From assembly GCA_965219095.1 (NCBI GenBank), contig CBDCMT010000001.1, positions 1,696,001-1,760,000 on the forward strand: a stretch of DNA of 64,000 bases, written 5' to 3'. Positions 318-63,513 of the stretch are shown one piece after another. The translations under genes were made by a program, and so were the position numbers. Every line of letters begins with the position of its first letter. Within the stretch, counting starts at the first letter, position 1. The stretch is from Bdellovibrionales bacterium. Its GTDB lineage: Bacteria > Bdellovibrionota > Bdellovibrionia > Bdellovibrionales > UBA1609. The notes beneath the pieces were generated by a model, which saw only the letters and a list, made by a program, of their open reading frames with translations, was not told the DNA's origin and searched no databases.

Positions 318-481
318 TGTTTTTTTTACAATGTGTAAAGGAAGAGTCATTAAAAAATGGAAAGGAAATGCAGGAAGTTTTCTCTTAGGTGATTAGAATA
401 TTCGTGACCGTATGCAAAAAAAATTTTTTATATTTTTTGTAAATGGAGAAGTGTTTCTTCTTGACATACTTTTTGATAGAC
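318..481 (+). mobile_element. IS110/IS1111-type element, right-end non-coding remnant
   Basis: Near-identical to 53509-53672; ends TTGACATACTTTTTGATAGAC. Confidence 0.88.
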
Positions 482-1682
482 ATTTTTATGTTCAAATTTA
501 AAATTTTAAAATTGACTTAAGGAAAAGCTTCAGTTAGGAGATTTTAAAAAAACTTCTTTTAAGGTGAGTTTAAGTTTTCATAAGATATGTTTATTTCATG
601 TACATCTATTTGTTGTGTGAATCGATTGATGGGTTAAAATAAGTGAAAAAAAGTGAGGGTAAAATTTAAAATGAAAAAAATCAGTTACACAATTTAATTT
701 ATAGGTTCAAATTAATTTACAAGCTTGATTCATCTTGTTGTTTTGCCCAAGATCGAGTGCATAATTTTTTAATCCTGCCCTCCTGATCGCAAAAAGTATT
801 CCAGGCCTCACAACAAGTATTCACTATATGGTCATAGTTTTTAAAACATGCATTCGATAATTTGATCCTTCGTAATTGTTGCCAGACTTGTTCCATGGGA
901 TTTAATTCTGGACTATCCGGACAAACTGCTCCAAAAATATAAGTGGATAAAAATTGTCTTTGCCTCACAACTCTAGGCCGTGTGCCTTTTCTTGCCCAAA
1001 TCCTACTCAAAGAACCTTGCTGAGCTTATTCTGCATTCATCCTGCCACCAAATCTCTATTTTATGAGTCTGAATCTTTTCTTTTATTTTCTCCACCTCTT
1101 CTGGAAAATGTTCCTTAAACTGTTCCATAGCTTCTTAATGAACTTTTAGGATGAAGAGAACGACCACTGATACATACAATATTAAGGCGGTCTAAAGAAA
1201 CATAAACCCCAGAAAGAGAATAGCAACAGTCAAATTCATCTGCTAAAAGTTCCTGTATTCCCTTTGCTCCTATGCTGCCTCCTTCTCTTTTGTCTTGAAT
1301 TTCATCTAACTTGATTTTGAACCTCTCTTCTTCTGTCACTGGCAAACGAGGCTTGCGTCCTCTGCCTTCTCGATCTATCAATCCCTCGTAATCAAAGTCT
1401 ACAAAAAAAGACTGTAACCAAGATTTGATACTGTGACGATGATAGAAAACCATATTTAGCTGTTTCTTGAATCGATTTTCCGTCTTGCATATGCTGCAAA
1501 GCTTGGAGTTTTATCTTGATGTTGGCACTTCTTTCTACTTTGTAAGTAGCCAGAAAATCATACCCTTGAATCTGTGTAACTAAATCTTTTTTCGACATGA
1601 CTCTAAAAATTTAACAGAGTTTGATCAAAAAGCCAGGACGCAATGAGTTAAAAGAATGTCGAATTAATTTTTGGAAATGGTA
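482..1682 (-). mobile_element. IS630-family element, degraded copy (ORF fragments 1392..1598, 1115..1453, 717..1010; internal deletion in the DDE domain)
   Basis: Near-identical to 56941-58351; WARKG...SPELNPMEQVW motifs; one TIR at 1655-1682 followed by TA, the other cut at TTCGAC|ATTTT by the IS1111 end. Confidence 0.92.
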
Positions 1683-1865: not shown

Positions 1866-3029
1866 ATGTTTAAAAGAATGATTAAGCTCTCTAAAACAAA
1901 TAGTCTTTTTCTTTTTGGTGCAAGAGGGGTGGGAAAATCAACGCTTGTTAAAAATGATTATAACTCAAAACAAACTCTTTGGCTTGATTTCCTATCCTAT
2001 AAAGAAGAAGAGAGATTTTCACAAAATCCAGATGAATTGATATCACTTTTGGAAGATAATAACTATAAAAAAGTTGTTATTGATGAGATTCAAAAAGTTC
2101 CAAAAACTTTGGATGTTGTTCAAAAAATCATGATAGATAAGCCTAACATTCAGTTTATTTTAACAGGATCTAGTGCTAGAAAGATCAAAAGAGGATCTGG
2201 TAACTTACTGGCAGGCAGAGCCTTTGTATACCACCTCTATCCTTTTTCAATATTTGAATTAAAAAATAAATACAACTTAGTTGATATTTTAGAATGGGGA
2301 GGTCTTCCTGAGATTTTTATAAAAAAAAATAAATCAGAAAAAAGAAGGTTTTTAGATAGTTATTCTCAAACTTACCTAAAAGAAGAGATTCTGTTTGAAC
2401 AAATCATTCGAAACCTTAACCCTTTTAGAAGTTTTCTTAAAGTGGCATCCCAACAAAACGGTGAGCCTATAAACTATTATAAGATTGCTCAAGATATAAA
2501 TGTTGATAGTAAAACTGTTAAAAATTACTTTTCTATTTTAGAGGATACTCTTCTAGGTTTTGTTCTTCAAAGTTATCATAGATCGATTCGCAAACAAAAT
2601 AGAATATCTCCTAAGTTTTATTTTTTTGATACCGGAGTCAAAAGGGCTTTGGGAGCAGAACTTCAAATCCCTTTAAAAAAAAATACTTATGCTTTCGGAA
2701 AAGCTTTTGAACATCATGTAATTTTAGAGTGTCATTACTTGAATGAATACTTACAAAGAGATTTTAGTTTTTCGTATCTAAGAACAAAAAATCAAGTTGA
2801 GATCGATCTTGTTATTGAGAGGCCTGGTAAAAAAGACCTCCTTGTTGAAATTAAGTCTAGCGACAATATACAAGAAAGACATTTAACTCATTTAGTACGT
2901 TTTAAAAACCAATGGCCTAAAAAGTGCGAAGTTCAGGTTTGGTCTTTAGAATTTCGATCAAAATCCATAAAAGGTATTTCTTGTATCTTTTATAAAGACG
3001 CTTTAAAGAAGCTTTTTGCTATAAAATAG
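1866..3029 (+). CDS. AAA_14/DUF4143 ATP-binding protein with C-terminal PD-(D/E)xK-like domain
   Basis: GARGVGKS Walker A, IDEIQK Walker B, LTGSSA, LAGRA, PKFYFFDTGV, EIDLVIE...VEIK. Confidence 0.88.
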   Translation: MFKRMIKLSKTNSLFLFGARGVGKSTLVKNDYNSKQTLWLDFLSYKEEERFSQNPDELISLLEDNNYKKVVIDEIQKVPKTLDVVQKIMIDKPNIQFILTGSSARKIKRGSGNLLAGRAFVYHLYPFSIFELKNKYNLVDILEWGGLPEIFIKKNKSEKRRFLDSYSQTYLKEEILFEQIIRNLNPFRSFLKVASQQNGEPINYYKIAQDINVDSKTVKNYFSILEDTLLGFVLQSYHRSIRKQNRISPKFYFFDTGVKRALGAELQIPLKKNTYAFGKAFEHHVILECHYLNEYLQRDFSFSYLRTKNQVEIDLVIERPGKKDLLVEIKSSDNIQERHLTHLVRFKNQWPKKCEVQVWSLEFRSKSIKGISCIFYKDALKKLFAIK

Positions 3030-11437: not shown

Positions 11438-11499
11438 GTCTATGAAAAAGAATGTCAAGAAAAAACACTTCTCCATTTACAAAAAATATAAAAATTTTT
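11438..11499 (-). mobile_element. IS1111-type right-end remnant
   Basis: Reverse complement of ~53610-53672 with few mismatches. Confidence 0.8.
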
Positions 11500-13904: not shown

Positions 13905-16199
13905 ATGTCTTCTTATAAAGAATTACTCGAAATCCTTAACTCTGAAAAAAATGATGAATTGATTTTAGAGTCAGGAAAACCCATTTTACTGAGAAAGCAA
14001 GACCAATGTCTTAAAATAACAGACGGTAATATCCCTTTAAATGAACTAAGGGAGCTTTTTAAAGAACTTCTGAGCGAGGATAAGAAAAGTTTTTTACAAA
14101 AAAAAGGAATGTTTTCTATTCCTTTTGATTATGAGAATAAAAAAATGAAATTAGAAATCCTTCAAGATACGGAAAGGATGATGTTGCGTGTTTCCCACAA
14201 CATACCCTCTTTAAATTCATGGGCCGATCTAGACTTACACTTTAGTTTAGAAGAAGTTTTAAATTTTTCAAGAGGACTTGTTTTGGTGACAAGTCCCCAA
14301 AAGTCAGGAAAAAGCTCCACTTTAAGGGCTTTTGCTGAAGAGTTCTCTAAAAAAAATAAAGAAGTTTTTATTTTTGAATCAAAACCTCATTTGAACCAAA
14401 CGAATTTAATTCACAATATTTCTTTTTGGAGTATGAATTCCATAAAAGAGTTTCGCCATATTGTGAATATAAATCCATACTCTGTTTTAATACTAGATGA
14501 AGTACAGGATTCGAAATGGGCTTTTGAAGCTTTACAGGCCAGCTTCAAAGGGCATCTTGTGTTAGTTAGTTTTGCACACTTAGGTGTTATTCCTTCCTAT
14601 AGACATTTTTTAGGCTTATTAAAGGAACACGAACCGAATATACGAGATAATCTAAAGGCTATTGTAAGCCAAACTTTATTCAACAAAAAAAACAAATTGC
14701 GAAAAACAATTTCCCAAGAGTTTTTAATTTTAAGACCAGATACAAAAGAAAACTTAGTTCGTATAGAAAAATTTTTGGAAACACAAATTTATTCACAAGA
14801 TTGGAGACCTTTTGAGATTGATATTGAAGAGCAATACGAAAGAGGTGAGGTCTCTGAAGCCACTAAAGAGCTTTTCTCAAAAGACATGTTAAGTTGGATT
14901 AAGACGGAACATTTAGGTGTGGGAGAAGAGGACAATAATGAAATCGAAAAAACTTCCGTTTTCCTCACTCCTGAAGAAAAAGTAGAATTCGTAGGTAATG
15001 ATGAGCAATCTCATATAACACGAGTCAAAGAAGTAAAATTTCAACCTCAAAAAACCCTAAAAGAGGAGCAAAGTACTTTTCCAATTTTAGAAAAAAAAGA
15101 AAGTACTCTAGAGTTATCAAGTGCTATTTTAAAAGACAAGAGAAAAGAAATTGAAAAAAAGACCTCAGATTTACCAGACAATGTTTTAGAAGAAAAGAAA
15201 GAAGAAACCAAGGAAGAGCTTTCAATCTTATCAAATAAATCTTTAAAGGAGGAGAAAATCTCTCAAACTCCAAAGACAGATCTTAGCAAGGTCAAGGAAA
15301 AGTTTATGGAAGGAGGAGAAAGTGATTTTAAAGATGATCTTGATTTATTGATAGAAGGCCAAACGGTTCTTACAAATCAAACAACCGAAGATAAGGAGAA
15401 TCTTAGTGAAACTATCTTTGAAAAGAAAGCAAAGTCGTCCAAAGATGAAGTTCTAAATGATGTGAAAAAAGCCTCTCATACAACTTCTCTAAAAGAAAAG
15501 TTTGATAACAAAGATAGAAAAAAGGAGAAGCAAGAAGAAAAACAAACTGAAGATAAGACTGAAGACAAAGTTATAACACTAGGGCTGAACCAAAATATCA
15601 ACAGTGAAGCTTCTTATAAAAACAAAGACTCTTTTTCAACTCAAAATGCAAGTTGGAATTTAGACATAAGCCAGATTACTGAAACAGAACTCAAAAATAA
15701 GGACGATAAAGAGGGAGAGGATTATTTATCAAATGAGTTTTCTCCTGTTCCTGTGGAAGAAGAAATTTATTTTCAAAATAAGGCAGAAAATCTCCTCAGT
15801 AGGGGAGAGGGGAGAGTTGTTGAAGAATATCTAGACGAAGAGCTTAGCCTAGTTTTAGATGACGTAACAGAAATTAAAGAAAAAAAAATCTTCTTTAAAG
15901 ATCCAACCTCTCATAAATCTCATAAAGAAACAAAGGAAAATCAAGACTCGTCTCATTATGAAAAAACATATAGTGAAAACCCTGCTATAAATAAAATTAT
16001 ACGCACCAAAGAAGAAGAAAGTAAAAAATCTATAGATATAAAAAGGAAAAGAAACAAAGAAAAATACTCTCAAGAAAGAAAGAAAGCTTCTATTGATATA
16101 AATATTTTTGATAGAAGATCAAAGATTCATGAAGTGATTAAAGATGCAAAAACCAATATTTCTAAGATTTTATTGAAAAAAACAGGATCAAAAAAATAA
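13905..16199 (+). CDS. Divergent PilT/PilU-like ATPase with a long charged low-complexity C-terminus
   Basis: GLVLVTSPQKSGKSSTL (Walker A-like), VLILDEV, GHLVLVSFAH (His-box-like), AIVSQTL. Confidence 0.7.
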   Translation: MSSYKELLEILNSEKNDELILESGKPILLRKQDQCLKITDGNIPLNELRELFKELLSEDKKSFLQKKGMFSIPFDYENKKMKLEILQDTERMMLRVSHNIPSLNSWADLDLHFSLEEVLNFSRGLVLVTSPQKSGKSSTLRAFAEEFSKKNKEVFIFESKPHLNQTNLIHNISFWSMNSIKEFRHIVNINPYSVLILDEVQDSKWAFEALQASFKGHLVLVSFAHLGVIPSYRHFLGLLKEHEPNIRDNLKAIVSQTLFNKKNKLRKTISQEFLILRPDTKENLVRIEKFLETQIYSQDWRPFEIDIEEQYERGEVSEATKELFSKDMLSWIKTEHLGVGEEDNNEIEKTSVFLTPEEKVEFVGNDEQSHITRVKEVKFQPQKTLKEEQSTFPILEKKESTLELSSAILKDKRKEIEKKTSDLPDNVLEEKKEETKEELSILSNKSLKEEKISQTPKTDLSKVKEKFMEGGESDFKDDLDLLIEGQTVLTNQTTEDKENLSETIFEKKAKSSKDEVLNDVKKASHTTSLKEKFDNKDRKKEKQEEKQTEDKTEDKVITLGLNQNINSEASYKNKDSFSTQNASWNLDISQITETELKNKDDKEGEDYLSNEFSPVPVEEEIYFQNKAENLLSRGEGRVVEEYLDEELSLVLDDVTEIKEKKIFFKDPTSHKSHKETKENQDSSHYEKTYSENPAINKIIRTKEEESKKSIDIKRKRNKEKYSQERKKASIDINIFDRRSKIHEVIKDAKTNISKILLKKTGSKK

Positions 16200-16200
16200 A

Positions 16201-16248
16201 GCCTCCTCAAAAGAATCTGTGGGTTCCCGAAGGTTCTTTTGATGAGGC
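16201..16248. mobile_element. 48-bp ISL3-derived fold-back mini-element
   Basis: GCCTCCTCAAAAGAA...TTCTTTTGATGAGGC; same as 23171-23218 and 63379-63426. Confidence 0.85.
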
Positions 16249-24536: not shown

Positions 24537-25606
24537 GTCTATCAAAAAGTATGTCAAGAAAAAACACTTCTCCATTTACAAAAAATATAAAAAATTTTTT
24601 TTGCATACGGTCACGAATATTCTAATCATCTAAGAGAAAACTTCCTGCATTTCCTTTCCATTTTTTAATGACTCTTCCTTTACACATTGTAAAAAAAACA
24701 TATTCCTATTATGCGTCTATCTGAACCTTTTGTAACTGCTCACTCTCGTAAGTTTTTATTTAAAGCCATAGAGATGGCTTTAAATAAAAACTTACGAGAG
24801 TGAGCAGTTACTGTGTTTTTTACTTAGCCTCTTAAACTCTGCTTCATAACGTGCTTTCTCCTCCCCATAAGAACTGATAGCTTTATCTAAGCCTTCTAGA
24901 ACAAATATATCTCTTCTGCCCGTTTTAATTGAGTCTGCTTCTTAGCATCAAGATGGGAAGCTCGAAACAGAGCTGATCTTTGGTTTTTAACACGAACTCC
25001 TCTTTTAACCACATCTTCATACCCACTGACAATCTTACGAAGGTAAATGAATTCATCACCTGAGTGAAAAACTGGTTTCAAAAGGCCAGAGCGTAACAAT
25101 AAAACAAGTTTTTCAGCATCAATTTTATCAGTTTTAGCCCCTTCACTTAAAAGTTTGTTCCGAAGAGGATCACAGACTATGAACTCATCAACACTATCCT
25201 TTAATTCTGAATACAACCACTATCGAAGTTGTAGTCTCTTCGATAGTCAATATCTTCTTACCTTTCAGAGTTTTTAAATAGGCACGAAGATTCCCAAGAT
25301 CTGAAATCGTGTCCATAGTCTTAATATCTTTTGATTTGCCTGTCATCCTTGAAATGGCCATGTTACTTTGTGCCCAATCTACGGCTATATAGTGATCATA
25401 CATTTTATTTTCCTCCTTTGTTGGTTTGTTTATAAATAAAGTCTTGAAATCCTATTTTACATCTTTTTTTTGCTTTTCCCTTTGAGGCCTTAAAAACCAG
25501 GCCAGCTAAAGGGTTTAGAATTTGTCTCGAAAAGCTCACCTCCTTCTGCAAGTACTTTAGGGTCACTATCATGGCTTAAACCAGTGACCTGTCTTTTTGA
25601 TTTACC
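24537..25606 (-). mobile_element. IS1111-type element, internally deleted copy
   Basis: Reverse complement of 52080-52873 and ~53478-53672; identical ORF fragments 25194..25403 and 24896..25216. Confidence 0.92.
24732..24811. mobile_element. 80-bp palindromic mini-element from the IS66 right end
   Basis: 38-bp perfect arms and AGAG loop; arm equals 18289-18326. Confidence 0.92.
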
Positions 25607-25992
25607 GTCGAAATTAATTTTTGTAATTGGCGTAAGCAGTTACAAACATTCAAAGACAAGATGCCCTACTTCTTTGTCACACTAAATCATCAATTTTATG
25701 AGCTGCTTTAGGCGTTTTTACCCACAAATTCCCGGTAGGACTCAAACTTTTAACGCTAAGCAGTGCTTCTGGCGGACCAAGAGAAATGACAAAGTTTAAC
25801 AAGAAATAAGCCTAAACCAGATACCAGATCTATGACCACAAAAACTCAGTGAAATTTAGAAAACTATTTATTAATCCCCTCAAAAGCTAACTTAATAACA
25901 ACAGCTTTATGGACTAAAGGACTAAACATGGGTTGAAGGATAGCAAAGTTTTTTAAAGCTATTTTATGCAGAGCAATAAAACCTTCCTTTTT

Positions 25993-37961: not shown

Positions 37962-37988
37962 AACTATTAATTGAAAAGGGAGATAGCT

Positions 37989-39476
37989 ATGGAAACAAAT
38001 AACAATTTACAGCCTCATTACCATAAGGTTTGGTCGGATTTAATACAACCTAAGGACTTTCGTGTTGATCAAGACACTTTCACCCGTAAATACGGTAAAT
38101 TTATTATACAACCTCTTGAAAGAGGTTTTGGACAAACTTTAGGAAATTCATTACGAAGAGTTCTTTTAAGTTCTATGATGGGATCTGCTCCTGTGGCTGT
38201 AAAGTTTGACAACGTTGTTCATGAATTTAGTACTTTACCTGGAGTTTTAGAAGATATTACTGATGTGATTCTTAATTTGAAGGAAGTACGTTTTCAGCAA
38301 TTTGTTCCTGAGTCTGTACATTTAAGATTTTCTAAAAAAGGTCCTGGTAAATTCTTGGCAAGTGATATTCAAACTACGGATAAAATCAGTATTATCAATC
38401 CAAATAAAGTTATAGCTAACTTAGATGAAACAGGAAGTATAGAAGGAGAATTGATTCTTAATTTTGGTCGTGGCTATGAACCTTCTGAAGCTCATAAAGA
38501 TAAAGATTTTCCTGCAGGTTTTATTGCTATGGATTCTGTATATAGCCCTGTTCGCCGTGTGAACTATTCTGTACAGAACACAAGAGTAGGACAAAGAACA
38601 GATTATGATTCTTTAACTTTAGAAATTTGGACTCATGGAAATATGATCCCTCAAGAGGCTATTGCTTTAGCATCAAAAATTCTTAAAGAGCAACTTCAGG
38701 TTTTTATCACCTTTAATGAGAACACGACTTTTGGAGAAACTGAACAAGATGATTCTGAATCCGATCCTATCAATCCTATTTTCTTCAAACTTGTCGATGA
38801 ACTAGAACTCTCAGTAAGAAGTACTAATTGTTTGAAAAATGCGGACATTCGTTTTATTGGTGAACTTGTTACTCGTACAGAGATAGACATGTTAAAGACA
38901 AAGAATTTTGGTCGTAAATCTTTAAATGAAATCAAAGAAGTTCTTCAACCTATGAATCTTTTCTTAGGAATGAAAGTTCTTGGTTGGCCACCTAAAAATT
39001 GGGATCGCAAAGGCCCTCCTCCTGGTTATGAAAATAAAGAGGAGTTAAACACTCCTTTAAAAGAAATAAAAGTACCACCTACTTATGAAGGACAAGACTA
39101 TGATGAGAACGTAATGTCACCTAATAAAACTTCTTCTTCTCCTCCTCCTACGCCTCCTACTCCTACTCCTATGCCTCCTCCTCCTACTCCTACTCCTACT
39201 CCTACTCCTACTCCTCCTCCTACTCCTACTCCTATGCCTCCTACTCCTACGCCTCCTACTCCTACTCCTACTCCTACTCCTACTCCTACTCCTACTACTC
39301 CTACTCCTCCTACTCCTACTCCTACTCCTACTCCTACTCCTACTCCTCCTACTCCTCCTCCTCCTCCTATGCCTCCTACTCCTCCTCCTACTCCTACTCC
39401 TACTCCTACTCCTACTCCTACTCCTACTCCTACTCATGAAAAACAGGAGGATTCAGAAGGGGAAAATAAAGAGTGA
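37989..39476 (+). CDS. rpoA: RNA polymerase alpha subunit with Pro/Thr-repeat C-terminal tail
   Basis: PLERGFGQTLGNSLRRVLLSS, TRVGQRTDYD, LELSVRSTNCL, KNFGRKSLNEI. Confidence 0.97.
   Translation: METNNNLQPHYHKVWSDLIQPKDFRVDQDTFTRKYGKFIIQPLERGFGQTLGNSLRRVLLSSMMGSAPVAVKFDNVVHEFSTLPGVLEDITDVILNLKEVRFQQFVPESVHLRFSKKGPGKFLASDIQTTDKISIINPNKVIANLDETGSIEGELILNFGRGYEPSEAHKDKDFPAGFIAMDSVYSPVRRVNYSVQNTRVGQRTDYDSLTLEIWTHGNMIPQEAIALASKILKEQLQVFITFNENTTFGETEQDDSESDPINPIFFKLVDELELSVRSTNCLKNADIRFIGELVTRTEIDMLKTKNFGRKSLNEIKEVLQPMNLFLGMKVLGWPPKNWDRKGPPPGYENKEELNTPLKEIKVPPTYEGQDYDENVMSPNKTSSSPPPTPPTPTPMPPPPTPTPTPTPTPPPTPTPMPPTPTPPTPTPTPTPTPTPTTPTPPTPTPTPTPTPTPPTPPPPPMPPTPPPTPTPTPTPTPTPTPTHEKQEDSEGENKE
39141..39434 (+). 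repeat. In-frame CCT/ACT microsatellite (98 codons, P/T/M only)
   Basis: (CCTACT)n with CCTCCT, CCTATG and CCTACG variants. Confidence 0.97.
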
Positions 39477-39958
39477 GACATAGAATTCATAAAAAGGGCT
39501 TTCATAGAGATTCGGCACAAAGAAAGGCACTCATAAGAGGCTTAGTGTGTTCTTTAGTAGATCACAAACGTATAAAAACCACCTTAGCTAAGGCTAAAGA
39601 GCTTCGCCGTCATGTAGAAAAGGCAGTGACTTTAAGTCGCAAAGGAGGAGTTCATGTCCATCGAGTTCTTCTTTCAAAATATCCTCATAAACCCACAGTG
39701 AAATCTTTAGTTAATGAAATAGGACCGCAAATGAAAGATCGTCCAGGAGGCTACACCCGTATTTTAAAGTTAGGAAGAAGACAAGGAGATCAAGCTCCTA
39801 TGGCTATAATTGAATTTGTTAACTATAAACAAGAAAAGCCTGCAGAGCTTTCTCGTACAGAGAAAAAGAACCAAGAAAGGAAAAAAATCTTAAAGAAAAA
39901 GGAAAAAAGACGATCTGTGCGAGAAATGAAAGAGTTATCTCGCAAAATTAATAGATAA
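39473..39958 (+). CDS. rplQ: 50S ribosomal protein bL17
   Basis: MRHR...IKTTLAKAKE...RPGGYTRI. Confidence 0.97.
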   Translation: MRHRIHKKGFHRDSAQRKALIRGLVCSLVDHKRIKTTLAKAKELRRHVEKAVTLSRKGGVHVHRVLLSKYPHKPTVKSLVNEIGPQMKDRPGGYTRILKLGRRQGDQAPMAIIEFVNYKQEKPAELSRTEKKNQERKKILKKKEKRRSVREMKELSRKINR

Positions 39959-40687: not shown

Positions 40688-42194
40688 GGCTCCTCCCGGG
40701 AATCTGTGGGTGAAAAGTAGTAGAAATCCCCCAAAAGAGCTCATATTAATCAAAGTAAGAGTAAGACATTCTATCTTGTATTTTTGAGTTCTTTGAGGCC
40801 TTTACTGGCCTCTATCACCTCCGGTGATTGAACTCAAAAACATTCATTTATTTGCTGTATTACATTAAAATTTTAAAAAAGAAGCACCTACTTCCCAGAT
40901 GCCTTAAAATGTTATTCAAAAAAAAAAAAAGGAGGGAAGAGATGCTTTTGAAGACTATACTAAATGATTGTTTAAGATGGAAGTCTTTTGTATACGGAGA
41001 CATTTATTTTTCAAAAGATAGAAAGTCAATTAATGTTCCTATTAAGGCTCGTAAAAATGGCCAAGCTTTTTGTAGTGTTTGTAAGAAGCCCTGTTCAGTG
41101 TATGACAGCAGTAAATCATCACGGGACTTTGAATCCCTTCCTATTTTAAGTTACAGGGTGTTTTTTGTTTATTTTGTAAGAAGAGTTAATTGTCCTTGCT
41201 GTGGGGTAAAAGTTGAGTATTTACCTTGGGCCGATGGTAAGAAGAGTTTAACGATCTTTTACATGAAGTACTTAGCAGACTGGTGTCGTCACCTGTCTTG
41301 GAAAGAGGTTTCTTGTAAGTTTCATGTCAGTTGGAATCAGGTCTATGCTTCGGTAGAATGGGTCGTAGAATATGGTTTAAAACAAAGGGTTTTAAAGGGA
41401 ATACAAGCTATAGGTGTAGATGAAATACAATGGAAAAAGAACCATCAGTATCTCACCTTAGTCTATGAAATAAGCAAAGAAAGTGTTCGTTTGCTATGGA
41501 TAGGAGAAAAAAAACAGAAAAGAGTTTTAGAAAATTCTTTGATTTACTAGGAGAGAAGTCAAAAGAGATACGGTTTGTGTGCTCTGATATGTGGAAGCCT
41601 TATTTAAAAGTCATAAAGGAGAGGGCAAGTCAAGCTTTGAATATATTAGATCGGTTTCATATCGTAGCAAGACTCAATAAGGCTTTAGACGAAGTGAGAG
41701 CTTCAGAACACAAAAAAATGAAAGAAGATGGGTATGAACCCCTTTTAACAAAAGCTAGATGGCCCTTGTTAAAAAATGCAGAAAATTTAAAATCTTATGA
41801 AAAAGTAAAATTAAGGCATTTAATACAGTACAATTTAAAAAGTATCCGCTGTTATCTTTTAAAAGAAGACTTCCGACAGTTATGGACCTATGTTTCACCA
41901 ACTTGGGCTGGTAAATTTATAGACAGTTGGACGAGACGAGTCATGCTTTCAAAAATTGAACCTATGAAAAGAGAAGCAAAAACCATACGAAGACATAAGC
42001 TACTTATTCTTAATTACTTCAAGGCTAAAAAAACCTTCTCCTCAGGGATTGTAGAGGGTTTAAACAACAAAGTAAAACTCACTATGAGAAAATCTTACGG
42101 CTTTAGAACCTCTAAAGCTATAAAAATCGCCTTATATCATAACCTTGGAAAACTGCCAGAACCTCCGGGAACCCACAGATTCTTTTGAGGAGGC
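40688..42194 (+). mobile_element. ISL3-family element, full length; transposase (ATG 40942) frameshifted near the A-run at ~41510
   Basis: TIRs GGCTCCTCCCGGGAATCTGTGGGT / ACCCACAGATTCTTTTGAGGAGGC; Zn finger, IGVDE, CSDMW, DRFH. Confidence 0.95.
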
Positions 42195-43861: not shown

Positions 43862-44856
43862 CTAAGGACAACTAATAGTTTCTTTTGAAGTTAGGGCATT
43901 CACAGCATCAATAACAATATAAGGTTCGTTTTGAAGTGATTTTGTAAAAAAAGTTATTTGCTGATTATTATTTTTTCTTGAACATAAATAATCAATAGCT
44001 CTGGCTGCTATTTCTAATTCAGAAATATATTCTCCTTCTAGAGTTACAAGAGAAGCCACATCTTTTGCATTTAAAATAGCTTGTTTTGCATTTAAAATAG
44101 CTTGTTTTGCTTCTTCATCGTTGTTTCCAAATAAATTTTGAGTACTACTGAACAGCCCTGCAGAAGGACCATTTTCACTACTTTCATGAAAAGAATCACC
44201 TACTCCTTCAACTCCTTCTTCTGCAACTTTTGCTGTTCTCTCACTTGTTGATTTGAATGTATTACCTACTCCTTCAACTCCTTCTTCTGCAACTTTTGCT
44301 GTTCTCTCACTTGTTGATTTGAATGTATTACCTACTCCTTCAACTCCTTCTTCTGCAACTTTTGCTGTTCTCTCACTTGTTGATTTGAATGTATTACCTA
44401 CTCCTTCAACTCCTTCTTCTGCAACTTTTGCTGTTCTCTCACTTGTTGATTTGAATGTATTACCTACTCCTTCAACTCCTTCTTCTGCAACTTTTGCTGT
44501 TCTCTCACTTGTTGATTTGAATGTATTACCTACTCCTTCAACTCCTTCTTCTGCAACTTTTGCTGTTCTCTCACTTGTTGATTTGAATGTATTACCTACT
44601 CCTTCAACTCCTTCTGCAACTTTTCTGCAACTTTTGCTGTTCTCTCACTTGTTGATTTGAATGTATTACCTACTCCTTCAACTCCTTCTTCTGCAACTTT
44701 TGCTGTTCTCTCACTTGTTGATTTGAATGTATTACTTACTCTTTTTGCTTGTACAGCTCCCATGCCTTCTCTTGTTCTTTTTTCTTCAGTTGTTGAACCT
44801 GCTTGAACATGAAATGACAAAAGCAAGCCAGTCACTAATACGATGGTTTTTTTCAT
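43862..44856 (-). pseudogene. Exported protein with 22-aa tandem repeats and DUF2388-like C-terminus; frameshifted in one repeat
   Basis: Signal peptide MKKTIVL...VQA; AGGAGG SD; repeat EEGVEGVGNTFKSTSERTAKVA; C-terminus ILNAKDVASLVTLEGEYISELEIAA. Confidence 0.7.
44199..44735. repeat. 66-bp tandem repeat, 8 units
   Basis: Units start at 44201, 44267, 44333, 44399, 44465, 44531, 44597 (74 bp variant) and 44671. Confidence 0.96.
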
Positions 44857-51930: not shown

Positions 51931-52079
51931 GTTAATCTACTTATAAGGGCTTTTTTAGAATAAAGGACATTTGTGTGCTGTCGTCAAGAGGAATTTTTTA
52001 TCAGATGGAAGAACAAGAGGAAAAAGGTGTTTGAGCCTGTAAAGAGCCTGTAATACCAATTACAAAAATTAATTTCGAC

Positions 52080-53672
52080 GGTAAATCAAAAAGACAGGTC
52101 ACTGGTTTAAGCCATGATAGTGACCCTAAAGTACTTGCAGAAGGAGGTGAGCTTTTCGAGACAAATTCTAAACCCTTTAGCTGGCCTGGTTTTTAAGGCC
52201 TCAAAGGGAAAAGCAAAAAAAAGATGTAAAATAGGATTTCAAGACTTTATTTATAAACAAACCAACAAAGGAGGAAAATAAAATGTATGATCACTATATA
52301 GCCGTAGATTGGGCACAAAGTAACATGGCCATTTCAAGGATGACAGGCAAATCAAAAGATATTAAGACTATGGACACGATTTCAGATCTTGGGAATCTTC
52401 GTGCCTATTTAAAAACTCTGAAAGGTAAGAAGATATTGACTATCGAAGAGACTACAACTTCGATAGTGGTTGTATTCAGAATTAAAGGATAGTGTTGATG
52501 AGTTCATAGTCTGTGATCCTCTTCGGAACAAACTTTTAAGTGAAGGGGCTAAAACTGATAAAATTGATGCTGAAAAACTTGTTTTATTGTTACGCTCTGG
52601 CCTTTTGAAACCAGTTTTTCACTCAGGTGATGAATTCATTTACCTTCGTAAGATTGTCAGTGGGTATGAAGATGTGGTTAAAAGAGGAGTTCGTGTTAAA
52701 AACCAAAGATCAGCTCTGTTTCGAGCTTCCCATCTTGATGCTAAGAAGCAGACTCAATTAAAACGGGCAGAAGAGATATATTTGTTCTAGAAGGCTTAGA
52801 TAAAGCTATCAGTTCTTATGGGGAGGAGAAAGCACGTTATGAAGCAGAGTTTAAGAGGCTAAGTAAAAAACACAAAGATATTAGCAATCTTAGTAGCATT
52901 CCAGGAATTGGTTCTATCAAGGCTATCAAGATTGTAGCCAGGGTTGTAGTGCCTCACCGATTTAAACGTAATTCCTGGTGGAGTGGACTGCGGACTTGTA
53001 AAGCTACATAAAATGAGTAGTGGAAGGTCTTATGGAACTAAGAAGTCTAGGTTTTGCCCACAAATGAAAAGTGTTTTTAAGATAGCTGCACTCTCAGTTA
53101 TAGGAAATAACAATGAATTTAATGATTTTTATGAAGAATTGATCAAAAAAAATTTACCACCACACACTGCTAGAAATGCTACCAACTAGAAGAATTGCAG
53201 CTTTAACTTTAGGTGTTTTCAAGTCTGGGAAAAAATATAAACCTTATGGAGAACGTAAAAATGTAAATAATAATAAAACAACCTTATAAAATCATCTGTT
53301 TAAAGTTTCTTGCATAGTAAGTAACAATACAAATAATGACTTTATGAGGTGAGGATAGATAGCTTAATAAAAATGATATTTATAAAAAATTCATTTCGAC
53401 GAATAGCACATCCTCTATTCCTGAAATTTACTATAATCTAAGGTTTTAAATCTTTGGAATTCATGATTTAAAACTAAAAAAGGTTCAGATAGACGCATAA
53501 TAGGAATATGTTTGTTTTACAATGTGTAAAGGAAGAGTCATTAAAAAATGGAAAGGAAATGCAGGAAGTTTTTTCTTAGGTGATTAGAATATTCGTGACC
53601 GTATGCAAAAAAAATTTTTTATATTTTTTGTAAATGGAGAAGTGTTTTTTCTTGACATACTTTTTGATAGAC
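52080..53672 (+). mobile_element. IS110-family, IS1111-type element; transposase 52283..53289 frameshifted
   Basis: IAVDWA, IEE, KTDKIDA (RuvC-like DEDD), SIPGIG, SSGRS; sub-terminal IRs ATCAAAAAG 52085-52093 / CTTTTTGAT 53660-53668; GAC at both junctions. Confidence 0.93.
53335..53542 (+). ncRNA. Predicted bridge/seek RNA of the IS1111-type element
   Basis: Hand-folded stems enclose loops with target matches (AAAAATG, ATTTCGAC) and donor matches (ATTTAC, GATAGACG). Confidence 0.7.
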
Positions 53673-53755
53673 ACTCTAAAAATTTAACAGAGTTTGATTA
53701 AAAAGCCAGGACGCTATGCGTTAAAAGAATGTCGAATTAATTTTTGGAAATGGTA
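53673..53755 (-). mobile_element. IS630 transposase-start-side end
   Basis: Matches 58269-58351; followed by TA. Confidence 0.88.
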
Positions 53756-56780: not shown

Positions 56781-59700
56781 AATAAACATTGGAAGTTTGA
56801 CAAAACAAAAAAGGGATTTGTTCTAGAAGAAGGGCGAAGGCCTGCAAGCTATATTGTGGCAAGCTCAGATACTCGATCTTATGATGACTATGGAAAGATT
56901 GTAGAAATTCCCCTAGTTAATAAAATAAGAAAGAGAATTAATACCAATTACAGAAATTAATTCGACATTTTCATGTTCAAATTTAAAATTTTAAAATTGA
57001 CTTAAGGAAAAGTTTCAGTTAGGAGGTTTTAAAAAAACTTCTTTTAAGGTGAGTTTAAGTTTTCATAAGATAAGTTTATTTCAGGTATATCTATTTGTTG
57101 TGTAAATCGATTGATGGGTTAAAATAAGTGTAAAAAAGTGAGGTTAAAATTTAAAATGACAAAAATCAGTTACACAATTTAATTTATAGGTTCAAATTAA
57201 TTTACAAGCTTGATTCATCTTGTTGTTTTGTCCAAGATCGAGTGCATAATTTTTTAATCCTGCCCTCCTGATCGCAAAAAGTATTCCAGGCCTCACAACA
57301 AGTATTCAGTATATGGTCATAGTTTTTAAAACATGCATTCGATAATTTGATCCTTCGTAATTGTTGCCAGACTTGTTCCATGGGATTTAATTCTGGACTA
57401 TAAGGAGGTAAAGGCATCAGGGATAAATTCTTAGGAACTATCAAAGTCTCTGTGGTATGCCAACTGGCTCTGTCCATTAAAACAATTCCATGATAGTTTT
57501 CTTGAATATTTTTAGATATCTCATCTAAGTGAATTTGCATCATCCCTGAATTACATTCCGGTAAAACCCAAGCACAGCCTTTATCTTTATCCGGACAAAC
57601 TGCTCCAAAAATATAAGTGGATAAAAATTGTCTTTGCCTCACAACTCTAGGCCGTGTGCCTTTTCTTGCCCAAATCCTACTCAAAGAACCTTGCTGGCTT
57701 ATTCTGCATTCATCCTGCCACCAAATCTCTATTTTATTAGTCTGAATCTTTTCCTTTATTTTCTCCACCTCTTCTGGAAAATGTTCCTTAAACTGTTCCA
57801 TAGCTTCTTAATGAACTTTTAGGATGAAGAGAACGACCACTGATCCATACAATATTAAGGCGGTCTAAAGAAACATAAACCCCAGAAAGAGAATAGCAAC
57901 AGTCAAATTCATCTGCTAAAAGTTTCTGTATTTCCTTTGCTCCTATGCTTCCTCCCTCTCTTTTGTCTTGAATTTCATCTAACTTGATTTTGAAGTTCTC
58001 TTCTTCTGTCACTGGCAAACGAGGCTTGCGTCCTCTGCCTTCTCGATCTATCAATCCCTCGTAATCAAAGTCTACAAAATACTGTAACCAAGATTTGATA
58101 CTGTGACGGTGATACAAAACCATACCTGCTGTTTCTTGAATCGATTTTCCTTCTTGCATATGCTGCAAAGCTTGGAGTTTTATCTTGATGTTGGCACTTC
58201 TTTCTACTTTGTAAGTAGCTAGAAAATTATACCCTTGAATCTGTGTAACTAAATCTTTTTTCGACATGACTCTAAAAATTTAACAGAGTTTTATCAAAAA
58301 GCCAGGACGCAATACGTTAAAAAAATGTCGAATTAATTTTTGGAAATGGTATAAGGACTGGGAAAATAACAATTATTCAGGAGTTACGGGAGTTACAAAA
58401 AGATTGCTAGATTTTTGGCATCAAGCCCCTGAAGATTGTGGAAGGCAGTTTTCTTTTTTCTTTTGTCAGCTAGAAGCCATTAAAACACTAATCTTTTTAG
58501 TAGAGGCACCTGAGCATTTAAAAACAGGATTAAAAATTCCAAAAGATGAGTCTTTAAATAGGCTTTGCTCTAAAATGGCCACAGGAACGGGAAAAACAGT
58601 TGTTATGGCTATGACCATCGCTTGGCAAATTCTAAATAAAGTGAATTATCCAAGGGATACTCGCTTTTCAAAGAATATTTTTGTTGTAGCTCCTGGCTCA
58701 ACGGTCTTAGATAGGTTAAAAGCGTTAGAGTTAGGGGGTGAAGAAAACTATTACCGTGAATTTAAAATTATTCCAAATGAGTTTATGGAGAAGATGACTC
58801 AAGGAAAAGTTTTAATTAAAAAGCGTCATCAACTTCAGTGGGAGACAGAAGAAAAACTATCTAAAAGAAAGTCAGTAGATAAAAGAGGGGCAAAGAGTGA
58901 TACAGCTTATGTAAGAGAAGTATTAGAAAATTTAGCTAACCAAAATATTGTCGTTATAAATGACGAAGCTCATCATGCTTGGAGAAGACGATCAGAGCTT
59001 AAAATAAAGAAAACCGATGAAATGACAAAGCAAGAAGCAGAACAAGCTACTAAATGGATTGAGGGGCTTGATCGTATCAATAAAACTCTAGGCATTATTA
59101 ATGTCTTTGATTTTTCTGCAACCCCTTATGCTCCAGCAGGTAAAAAAGCTGATGAGAAAGATTTATTTGAATGGATAGTGAGTGACTTTGGACTAACAGA
59201 TGCCATTGAAGCTGGTTTAGTTAAAACCCCTCGATTTGCTATTGGAGATGATGCTAGTATTGATGTAAAAAACAAAAAAACTAGGCTTTATCATATTTAC
59301 GATAGTGATGAAGTTCGCCCTGATTTAAACAGAAAGACAAAGGAAAATGAATCCTTACCCGATATTGTAAAAATTGCTTATACACACCTCTCTCATGACT
59401 GGGATAAAAAATTTAATCAATGGAAGAACAGTTGTAAAAATGATAGTGAGTTTAGACCGCCTGTTATGATTTCTATCGTAAATAGAAAAGAAACTGCTGA
59501 TAGAATTGAGTTTAGCTTTAAAGAGGAAAATATTCCTTTAGCTAATCAGTTTAACAACCCAAATAAAATGATTAAGATTTACTCTGACTTAGAAGAACGT
59601 AAAGATAAAGCGACAGGCTCAAATAAAGCCTATCAAGAAGAAGTATTTGAAAAGCTCCATACTGTTGGAAAACTTAAAGGTATCGGACAGGATATTCATC

Positions 59701-60908
59701 ATATCATTGCAGTGGCTATGCTTTCAGAGGGTTGGGATTGCAAAACAGTAACTCATATTATGGGTCTTAGGGCTTTTAGCAGTCAGCTTTTATGTGAACA
59801 GACCGTAGGCCGAGGTTTAAGAAGAACTTCTTATGAATTGAACGATAAAAAAATATTTGATCCTGAATATGTTAGTGTTTTAGGAATACCTTTTTCATAT
59901 TTGCCTCAAGAGGGAGATGATAAAGATCTAAAACCAGAAAACCCAAAAAGTGCTATTTTTCCAGAGCCTAAGAAAGTGGAGTATGAAATCTCTTGGCCGA
60001 ACGTTAAAAAAATTGAAAAAGAGTTAAAACCAGAGCTTAAGATCGATTTTAAGAAAATGGGAATATTTAGAGTAGATGTTTCAAATATTCCTCGCATCAA
60101 TGAAATAGCTCCTGTTATTGACAATAAACCTCGGTATGAAGATATTTCTGTTACAAGCTTACAAGAGTTTTTTGAAAAAAATTACGAGCCAGATCGTATG
60201 CAGACTCTGATATTAAAAATGACGGGAGAAGTATACGAAAAATTAAATTTAGATTGGCAAAGGAAAGTTTTAAAGAAGGAGGCTATAAAGCAAATTTTTC
60301 ACTTATTTGAACAGTTTATAGAATCTCATAAGTTTAAAATAACTCCTGAATATGAAAAGGAGAGAAAAGATTTAATGGTTATGATCAAAATGAATGAGAT
60401 TGTAAATAAAATTTTCCACTCCATTCAAAAAGACTCTGTCGAAAAGCTCACAGTTATTTATGGTCAACCTAAATTTTCTTCAACTAAAGACTGCTCAGAG
60501 TGGTGGACAAAAAAAGATACGGATATTTTCAAAAAAACTCATATGAATTTATGCGTCGTTGACAGTGGATGGGAACGAGCTCATGCTAGAGAGCTTGATA
60601 AAAATGAAAATGTTGAAGCTTGGGTTAAAAATGATCACTTGGGATTTGAGGTTGATTATATTGATGAAAAAGGAAAGCAAAGAGTTTATATTCCAGATTT
60701 TATCATTAGGCTTGTTAATGGAGTTCATATTGTTCTTGAAGTAAAAGGAATAAAGAAAAAGCGTGATATTCAAAAGTGGGATTTTATGGAAGATTGGTGT
60801 AATGCTATCACTCAAGACTTAGGGGCAAATTGGTGCTTTAGAAAGTCTCAAGATTCTACAGGAGGCATTGTTCATAAGATCATTGGTGAGATTCTGTCTG
60901 ATTCTTAA
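56781..60908 (+). pseudogene. Type III restriction enzyme Res subunit (BPTD_3080-like), split by IS630; main ORF 58404..60908
   Basis: KMATGTGKT, DEAHH, FSATP, MLSEGWD, YIPDF...LEVKG; N-terminal piece 56781-56940 rejoins in frame. Confidence 0.88.
56941..58351 (-). mobile_element. IS630-family element, full length (orfA 57788..58267, orfB 57202..57801)
   Basis: TIRs ATACCAATTACAGAAATTAATTCGACAT / ATGTCGAATTAATTTTTGGAAATGGTA; TA TSD; WWQDE, MDRASWH, LPPYSPELNPME. Confidence 0.95.
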
Positions 60909-63322: not shown

Positions 63323-63513
63323 GGCGTGTCCTCATTTACCTAGACCTTTTTCAAGACCTTAGGCGTGTTGAATATTTAGCCTCCTCAAAAGAACCTCCGG
63401 GAACCCACAGATTCTTTTGAGGAGGCGAAATTTCAAAGCTATGCTATCTATAGCATGTATGTTTATTTGGCTTAAACTTCAAAGTAAAGGTCCAGTCAAA
63501 TGAGGACACGCCC
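63322..63513 (+). mobile_element. IS5-family non-autonomous derivative containing an ISL3 mini-element
   Basis: 16-bp TIRs GGGCGTGTCCTCATTT; TA flanks in CTAG context; transposase tail NFKAMLSIACMFIWL. Confidence 0.85.
63379..63426. mobile_element. 48-bp ISL3-derived fold-back mini-element
   Basis: GCCTCCTCAAAAGAA-N18-TTCTTTTGAGGAGGC, perfect 15-bp IR. Confidence 0.88.

Follow-up and report, generated by a model that had tools for sequence, protein, structure and literature searches.

An IS110-family element in the genome of a Bdellovibrionales bacterium was probably inserted into other mobile elements by RNA-guided recombination, re-aimed within its own lineage and spread as cargo of a resident IS630, as judged from sequence comparison. 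Guidance by RNA is likely because the predicted guides match the fixed positions that the element occupies, and the genome likely retains a record of guide re-aiming as it took place in nature. The analysis covers a stretch of 64,000 nucleotides (the window), the genome that contains it (G000; 3.11 Mb in two contigs, 34% GC, 94% complete) and relatives of the element from other genomes and metagenomes.

Organization of the element and of IS630 in the window

The best-preserved view of the element, which has an IS1111-type layout, lies at 52079..53671 on the plus strand and carries a 60-bp leader deletion. Its ends consist of a 6-bp left extension (52079-52084) and a 3-bp right extension (53669-53671) outside perfect inverted 9-bp sub-terminal repeats (52085-52093 and 53660-53668), and a -35 box is located at 53652-53657 (+). 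Between them are a DEDD recombinase pseudogene (52283..53289, +; PF01548) with four frameshifts common to most or all other copies, and a predicted bridge/seek RNA with a target-binding and a donor-binding loop (53346..53508, +), proposed from covariation and fold. Upstream stands the outer half of an IS630 left terminal inverted repeat (TIR) in a rare variant with an extra T (52056..52078, +), preceded by TA at 52054-52055. Downstream, the right end (53671) passes into a terminal piece of IS630 of ~80 bp that runs from the start-codon site to the right TIR (53672..53753, +), with TA at 53754-53755 beyond it. The preliminary description of this DNA overlooked this right junction; its IS630 segment matches guide B (described below) at 8/9 positions, and the two flanks form the left and right ends of a hybrid composite.

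Further copies in the window are reduced. A right-end remnant without guide region is present at 318..480 (+), retaining the -35 box (461-466) and the right sub-terminal repeat (469-477). An ISL3 end abuts it at 317; the ISL3 identity rests on repeat D3 and the ORF at 41496-42188, whose score of 164 is below the cut-off of 180. From 481 the remnant is followed by an IS630 copy broken at its left TIR (481..1680), in which the outer 22-23 bp are gone and an internal deletion is found; its first 95 nt are identical to an empty IS630 at C1:560611, and the right target guide of guide A, read as its reverse complement, is identical to bases 481-489. A second copy, internally deleted and lacking the target loop, occupies 24538..25607 on the minus strand. 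It is chimaeric, with an IS630-TIR left flank (25608..25630, -), of the same rare variant as 52056-52078 and supported by repeat I1 (819 nt, 100%), and a MITE-like repeat as its right flank. Another right-end remnant is followed by a degenerate IS481-type terminal repeat (11439..11499, -).

An unoccupied IS630 is found at 56944..58349 (-; NF033545 143.7 bits, cut-off 100), with intact ends and a split ORF (159 + 199 aa). Its TIR site (56961-56974) is a one-mismatch variant and its start-codon site the non-matching ATG variant. The junctions on which the preliminary description had based an insertion of an IS1111-type element into the IS630 TIR are all present: the right end at 318-480 leads into the inner left TIR from 481, the outer 23 bp of the TIR precede the left ends at 52079 (+) and 25607 (-), and the intact empty TIR is seen at 56944-56972, with the break at 56966.

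Other features of the window include an RNA polymerase alpha subunit (501 aa) whose C terminus carries a long extension of tandem repeats (37971-39476; repeat D1, 39084-39479) and a 66-bp tandem repeat array that overlaps a 135-aa ORF (44109-44842). Neighbours of IS630 copies are an 834-aa ResIII-domain protein with a weak TnsA-like match (58404-60908) and an AAA_14/DUF4143 ATPase (1866-3029).

Family placement of the recombinase

The window fragment matched the N-terminal RuvC-like DEDD domain PF01548 with 31.2 bits (cut-off 29), and the C-terminal PF02371 was found on nearly all of the 120 homologues listed. Residues D9, E56, D92 and D95, which by position we take to be catalytic, are invariant in nine aligned sequences, including a G000 fragment. 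The SG motif is present in 8/8 full-length aligned rows and, in G000, only in a shifted frame. Intact relatives scored 116 and 115 against NCBIfam NF033542 (cut-off 140) in a full-length alignment with an E value of 1e-33; the sub-cut-off scores point to a diverged clade.

Several features of the IS1111 group were observed. The sub-terminal repeats (9 bp, perfect) lie inside the 7-17 bp range given in the accessible text of PMC11208160 and are shorter than the usual 11-13 bp of PMC11187229 (accessible text). The extensions of 6 bp on the left and 3 bp on the right, without target duplication, agree with the 7/3 or 6/3 pattern of the group, and the predicted guide RNA lies 3' of the transposase with its top-strand guide first. 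The leader is also long (200-260 bp), and the 3' non-coding region measures 380 bp. In the GL-P----S(t)G motif, K replaces P in 8/8 full-length rows; on this account, the element is filed in the IS110 family as IS1111-type by layout only, not as a settled IS1111 member. A reconstructed circle junction is predicted to combine the perfect -35 box at 53652-53657 with a weak -10 box 17 bp further on.

Intact relatives of the recombinase are 79-85% identical to the window pseudogene, three of them (P0001-P0003) at 82-85% over its N-terminal fragment, and no intact copy was found in the G000 assembly. The four frameshifts are present in 17/19, 12/15, 14/14 and 16/16 of the copies spanning them, in all guide classes; short-read contigs, which may stem from the source sample, carry the same frameshifted letters. 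A phmmer search of PDB chains with an intact relative returned no match.

Prediction of the guide RNA

Relatives were drawn from genome and metagenome contigs, and 63 of the 79 loci gave a conserved cassette 3' of the ORF. In its first stem-loop, 13 of 16 consensus pairs show two-sided change. The window copy folds with two internal loops, its fold energy being unremarkable (z -1.4). A guide RNA in the leader was considered and rejected. Rfam contained no family for the predicted RNA at 53346-53508. Across relatives, its guides vary in step with both target and donor, as in other IS110-family elements.

Two loop segments of 9 and 8 nt, delimited by covariation, are the putative right and left target guides (RTG and LTG), a function that we infer from the family. 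In relatives, the RTG matched the element's own right flank at 6.5/8 positions compared with 3.6 after shuffling (n=43), taking the best of three registers in real and shuffled pairs alike, and the LTG matched its own left flank at 3.7/5 non-core positions compared with 1.5 (n=40). None of 2000 permutations reached either real value, in a set of loci that are not independent owing to kinship. The top-strand guide comes first, the order reported for IS1111 seekRNAs (PMC11187229, accessible text).

In the window copy, the RTG of guide A (53367..53375, +) is complementary at 9/9 positions to the right half of the IS630 left-TIR site. The LTG (53394..53401, +), common to guides A and B, forms Watson-Crick pairs at 6/8 positions of the TIR site and 7/8 of the start-codon site, plus one core wobble. 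The left donor guide (53488..53495, +) is identical to the element's right end plus core. A right donor guide is predicted at 53426..53433 (+), where an alignment read by eye gives an imperfect, wobble-dependent fit to the left end. Another candidate for the right donor guide, near 53598, was rejected since the motif there is conserved whatever the donor.

Insertion sites across the genome

A census of G000 with strict end patterns retrieved 37 left and 35 right junctions. The left junctions comprised the IS630 left TIR (24), an internal IS630 site (4), an IS481 TIR (4), an ISAzo13 end (1), a MITE-like repeat of 7-8 copies (1) and other sequences (3). Among the right junctions, 14 fell in the internal IS630 site, 7 in the IS630 left TIR, 7 in IS481-type ends, 3 in the MITE-like repeat and 4 elsewhere. 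The internal IS630 site overlaps the transposase start codon, with its core at 58265-58266 in the empty copy of the window. Some other repeated mobile element flanks 34/37 left and 31/35 right junctions, against a genome repeat background of 35% (the share of G000 in 31-mers with at least three copies). The junctions are precise, in a single orientation and without target duplication, and removal of the element restores the empty site exactly. The identity of the target families was supported by their transposases: IS481 (NF033577, 281.8; cut-off 224), ISAzo13 (NF033519, 541.2; cut-off 200) and IS630, for which NF033545 was above its cut-off and TA was present on both sides of 49/50 full-length copies.

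The census also clarified several details of the preliminary description. Insertion sites were mostly IS630-related. The element nevertheless cannot be called a specialist of the IS630 TIR, given that several guides occur among its copies and at least five mobile-element sites are occupied. The right flanks at 24537 and 11438, recorded there as non-IS630, indeed are not IS630, yet they are other mobile DNA, namely the MITE-like repeat and an IS481-like end. The shared GAC core did not hold: relatives show a dinucleotide, which is CG in the donor and either CA or CG at the target, so a three-letter core was rejected and the three-letter identity is partly coincidence.

Common ancestry of the window's two left junctions, of which the preliminary description had warned, was borne out. 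Both carry the rare TIR variant (one substitution and one extra T), which was seen in three occupied ends and one empty end among 140 TIR-like matches. Descent of all TIR insertions from one event was not borne out: 3 of the 7 right flanks at occupied TIRs, including that at 481, are closer to an empty IS630 (0-2.5 differences) than to another occupied one (3.5-4). Of the other four flanks, one is tied, and three, including a duplicate pair, are nearest each other or tied. Several TIR insertions thus look independent on flank divergence, and several leader haplotypes were found at the TIR as well as at other targets. The right TIR of IS630 had no junction genome-wide, though 34 empty copies match guide A there at 8/9, which points to few founders or to strict distal pairing.

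A 3-bp core duplication was observed once at a left junction (G000 C2:1423838) and once at each of the two empty IS630 sites; these are possibly footprints of imprecise recombination.

Guide variants and their targets

The cassette search in G000 gave 28 rows: 18 complete cassettes, 3 partial ones, 3 5' halves cut by other insertions, and 4 unrelated or diverged sequences. The complete cassettes were assigned to guide A (7), B (7), B' (2, one a segmental duplicate) and C (2). Guide A spells a 14-bp site (14/14), and all 47 of its genomic matches are IS630 TIRs. Guide B, with the same LTG, spells a 13-bp site (13/13), whose 25 matches are without exception the IS630 start-codon site in its GTG form. 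In 20,000 draws of shuffled guide letters, at least 20 sites were reached only 59 times for A and 7 times for B; among the three-substitution neighbours of A, 2/540 had at least 10 sites, B being one of them. Occupied sites follow the guides: TIR right junctions lie on the guide-matching variant in 7/7 cases, compared with 47:39 matching to non-matching empty sites, and start-site right junctions in 14/14, compared with 25:61, the junctions not all being independent.

Guide-programmed targeting of IS630 is therefore very probable as a reading of these matches, and the 14/14 agreement supplies a mechanism for the specific TIR targeting claimed in the preliminary description. A history of unprogrammed, chance insertion, happening once or twice and multiplied by IS630, would be in keeping with a genome of which 35% is repeated, with the shared ancestry of some occupied ends and with the unoccupied right TIR. 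This explanation is extremely unlikely in view of the guide-target identities of 14/14 and 13/13 in a register validated on relatives, the at least five distinct mobile-element sites and the several independent TIR flanks.

Guide C has no perfect target anywhere in G000. Its left guide matches the MITE-like site at 7/8, while its right guide matches two right flanks at 5/9 and 3/9 in register, and a fit to either flank, judged by eye, requires a one-base bulge. This leaves the IS481 and MITE-like insertions less well explained. Ten copies retain both ends, of which 4 are chimaeric and 6 concordant. Among the concordant copies, the best Watson-Crick fit is given by the resident guide in 2 cases; in 3 it fits by wobble (two of these being one segmental duplicate), and in 1 it does not fit, so cis agreement between resident guide and insertion site is imperfect. 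A dead guide-A copy sits precisely in a MITE-like site that guide A does not fit, a placement that suggests either trans activity or subsequent conversion. For ISEc11, activity in trans was demonstrated (PMC11187229, accessible text).

The target loop has itself received insertions. In 5/7 guide-B copies, an IS1634-family element (identity confirmed for one copy) is inserted in the bridge RNA at the opening bases of the RTG, in at least two orientations (e.g., G000 C1:308829-310535 and C1:171189-172890, and three more); the re-aimed guide B may have created an AT-rich insertion hotspot. In an intact relative from genome G043, a group II intron (RF02005; L215:2408-2643) is inserted at the RTG start, the same spot as IS1634 in G000.

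Possible route of retargeting

Guides A and B differ at 3 of the 9 RTG positions, and two of the three differences are A-to-G in the RNA. Outside the guide, divergence is 2.0% between A and B, 1.8% within A and 2.3% within B. With wobble counted, guide B pairs at 8/9 positions of the TIR site and at 9/9 of two ISAzo13 end variants; guide A reaches only 5/9 at the start-codon site. Since B would keep the TIR by wobble and gain the start-codon site, it may be a broadened guide that was reachable by tolerated steps. The A-to-G changes would retain TIR pairing through G.T wobble while the start-codon site is gained, and retargeting could pass through intermediates that are tolerated, selection favouring landing sites that are plentiful and do no harm. 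For ISPpu10, an A-to-G change in the RTG giving a G.T wobble supported insertion, at one position only (10.64898/2026.03.19.712850, accessible text), and IS621 is described with low mismatch tolerance (PMC11208160, accessible text). Among our relatives, wobble is represented by few examples (L042, L045, L049 and L080), all U.G. No A-to-B intermediate was found among the 18 complete cassettes.

Wobble-bridged retargeting within the lineage is accordingly offered as a tentative proposal, in which both the direction and the tolerance are inferred. Under the same proposal, the genome could record bridge-RNA reprogramming in progress, its non-autonomous copies acting as a guide library altered by wobble-tolerated A-to-G changes, with IS630 as the carrier. 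It is conceivable, at somewhat below even chances, that one guide kept the old IS630 TIR site while gaining new IS630 and ISAzo13 sites. With comparable reserve, the hitting of both IS630 ends might have made IS630 a carrier that amplified the dead invader together with its guides.

The guides could also have been imported on sister elements or templated from target DNA and then recombined onto a common scaffold. The missing intermediate would agree with such an origin, as would the gene conversion evident within about 80 nt of the guide and the distance of guide C, which differs at 6/17 guide positions and 3 hairpin positions. We consider this origin unlikely, as the targets of A and B both lie in the same resident IS630, the two guides have a common LTG, there is no between-guide divergence outside the guide, and a DNA-level relative is absent from the 40 related genomes searched. 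Guide-target identity stops at the guide edges, which neither shows nor excludes templating.

IS630 as probable carrier of the element

Movement of the element between IS630 ends, suggested as hitch-hiking in the preliminary description, is probable and draws support from hybrid composites, junction imbalance and shared rare alleles. Two complete hybrids, consisting of the outer left TIR, the element and the last ~80 bp of IS630, were identified (window 52056-53753 and C2:1168782). The skew between left and right junctions is opposite at the two sites (24:7 at the TIR, 4:14 at the start codon), the surpluses being unequal under strict patterns (17 vs 10). With looser patterns, 25 of 26 left outer flanks (24 with TA) and 18/18 right outer flanks (all with TA) are distinct, an observation that alone does not prove composite transposition. 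One SNP is present in 15/19 occupied but 7/41 empty right ends of the same variant. Three copies, two of them in the window, have the rare TIR variant in common and are almost identical inside, yet their flanks differ. A source of transposase is available, as 18/50 full-length IS630 copies have an open frame (357-368 codons).

The proposed sequence of events would begin with recombination between a TIR-inserted and a start-codon-inserted copy, giving a unit of outer left TIR, element and IS630 right end. An intact IS630 transposase would then have moved this hybrid in trans. Dead copies would also have moved with recombinase and guides supplied in trans, and gene conversion would have shuffled guides and flanks. 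Spread as IS630 cargo would have come after the recombinase broke.

Copy-to-copy recombination is common (4 of 10 two-ended copies are chimaeric), and part of the pattern may therefore be rearrangement. Guided targeting without any hitch-hiking would explain the data by independent insertions into pre-existing IS630 copies, with hybrids formed by rearrangement or gene conversion. This accords with chimaeras that include non-IS630 combinations, with leader and 3' haplotypes shuffled across target and guide classes, and with the several TIR right flanks nearest to empty IS630 copies. Rearrangement, however, would keep left and right counts roughly equal, contrary to the skews observed, and the three ends with the rare TIR variant have different flanks, leaving little outside homology for conversion. 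The SNP also argues against it, although an older IS630 population could produce the same distribution. On balance, we regard this alternative as distinctly unlikely and favour carriage by IS630. No contiguous empty composite flanks were found in G000 among 26 x 18 pairs, and the contigs of four runs from one study showed neither a circle junction nor a joint from which the element or composite was missing, which is not evidence of absence.

Immobilisation of IS630, the other outcome raised in the preliminary description, found no support. Truncated-TIR composites appear to have moved, and 18/50 full-length IS630 copies are uninterrupted, 17 of them with a guide-matching TIR. An element acting mainly as a suppressor, which immobilises IS630 by cutting at the TIR and the start codon in an arms race, would make sense of the choice of two functional sites and of the non-matching variants (39 at the TIR, 61 at the start site). 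We judge it very unlikely, because the 18 open-frame IS630 copies keep a matching TIR in 17 cases and a matching start site in 11, the truncated-TIR composites appear amplified and other families are also targeted. In view of these open-frame copies, an interpretation of the non-matching forms as IS630 escape variants was not supported; these forms are commonest in copies with a split ORF.

Relatives and comparison with known systems

A DNA search of 40 related genomes returned no real relative of the element. A protein search of 108 family genomes identified relatives in 10, and a metagenome scan added 11 relatives above 35% identity among 80 loci. Genome G111 contains 12 intact copies (L203-L213) with one guide at one position of a REP-like repeat target, a clean and, from its intact copies, probably active system; in G043 the guide regions are disrupted. 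The guide is monomorphic in the multi-copy relatives L033/L034/L036, L038/L040/L041/L080 and L064/L065, and outside G000 no guide polymorphism was seen in G111 or the other multi-copy relatives examined. No IS630-TIR-targeting relative was noticed when the relatives' flanks were read by eye.

Targeting of the ends of one IS by another is already known. Muller et al. 2001 reportedly described that IS1383, of the IS110 family, targets the inverted repeats of IS1384, likewise a specific insertion of an IS110-family member in the terminal repeat of another IS. With this direct precedent, the IS-on-IS end targeting put forward in the preliminary description is less novel than it appeared there. The present case differs in its target, which is IS630 together with the start-codon site and the IS481/ISAzo13 ends, and in that the guides can be read out, several in one genome. 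IS4321/IS5075, of the IS1111 group, reportedly insert in Tn21-family TIRs (Partridge and Hall 2003); they share with our element the sub-terminal repeats and a fixed position and orientation in a transposon TIR. Unlike in IS4321/IS5075, the target here is a simple IS630, only one of its two TIRs is used, and the truncated end appears still mobile, carrying the invader.

Among elements with a characterized guide RNA, ISEc11, ISKpn4 and ISPa11 encode their seekRNAs 3' of the transposase and include 6/3 extensions as an occasional form (PMC11187229, accessible text); the downstream RNA, guide order and 6/3 extensions resemble those of our element, whose clade differs in having K for P in the GL-P motif. 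The same accessible text reports natural re-direction between ISEc11 and ISXne4, with transposases 72% identical, whereas the re-aimed copies described here are ~98% identical outside the guide and reside in one genome. The IS621 bridge RNA has two loops with target and donor guides around a dinucleotide core, and a catalogue of 16 naturally occurring guide variants from different genomes exists for IS621 relatives (PMC11208160, accessible text). The predicted RNA shares this two-loop arrangement and differs from that account in its location at the right end, its CG/CA core, its reverse guide order and its 9-nt RTG. In the literature searched, subscription journals, ISfinder/TnPedia and supplements aside, we found nothing on IS110 elements targeting IS630 and nothing on guide polymorphism within a genome.

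The new part of this work is thus guide polymorphism within one genome, with a putative wobble-bridged path from A to B. Natural retargeting of IS110 guides is unsettled, the cases on record being comparisons between distant elements. In G000, three guide sets on one scaffold occur in one genome beside occupied and unoccupied target variants, providing ready-made pairs for rules of mismatch and wobble and for stepwise retargeting, which bears on off-target prediction for bridge recombinases. The composites suggest that a host element invaded at its TIR is not necessarily silenced, and that a mobile unit can arise instead. If true, these proposals would describe concrete mutations by which RNA-guided recombinases could acquire new targets in nature, and would show how one IS can convert another into a cargo transposon. 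The surprise is limited, since the basic behaviour was known and all recombinase copies are dead.

Additional end types and mini-elements

A further type of left and right end, short and next to a MITE-like repeat, uses the same target sites (G000 C1:327060, C2:890881, 959405, 1317763, 599913, 1227962 and 526136, among others) and is possibly a miniature non-autonomous derivative. The left donor guide of one copy is joined internally, at the core, to a short-type right end (G000 C2:715148), as though the element had inserted into a donor-like site in its own RNA gene. Earlier guide sets are suggested by an older, diverged group of left ends with T-rich flanks, by a pair of copies without the first frameshift and by two partial cassettes whose left guides differ (G000 C2:522033, 2387571, 868213, 625745 and 1617300, among others).

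Near-palindromic mini-elements made of doubled ends were observed at 24730-24811, 16193-16248 and 63371-63438 in the window and at G000 C2:1617271-1617312. Such doubled ends were seen for several IS families, including ISL3, IS630, the left end of the IS110-family element and one unidentified family.
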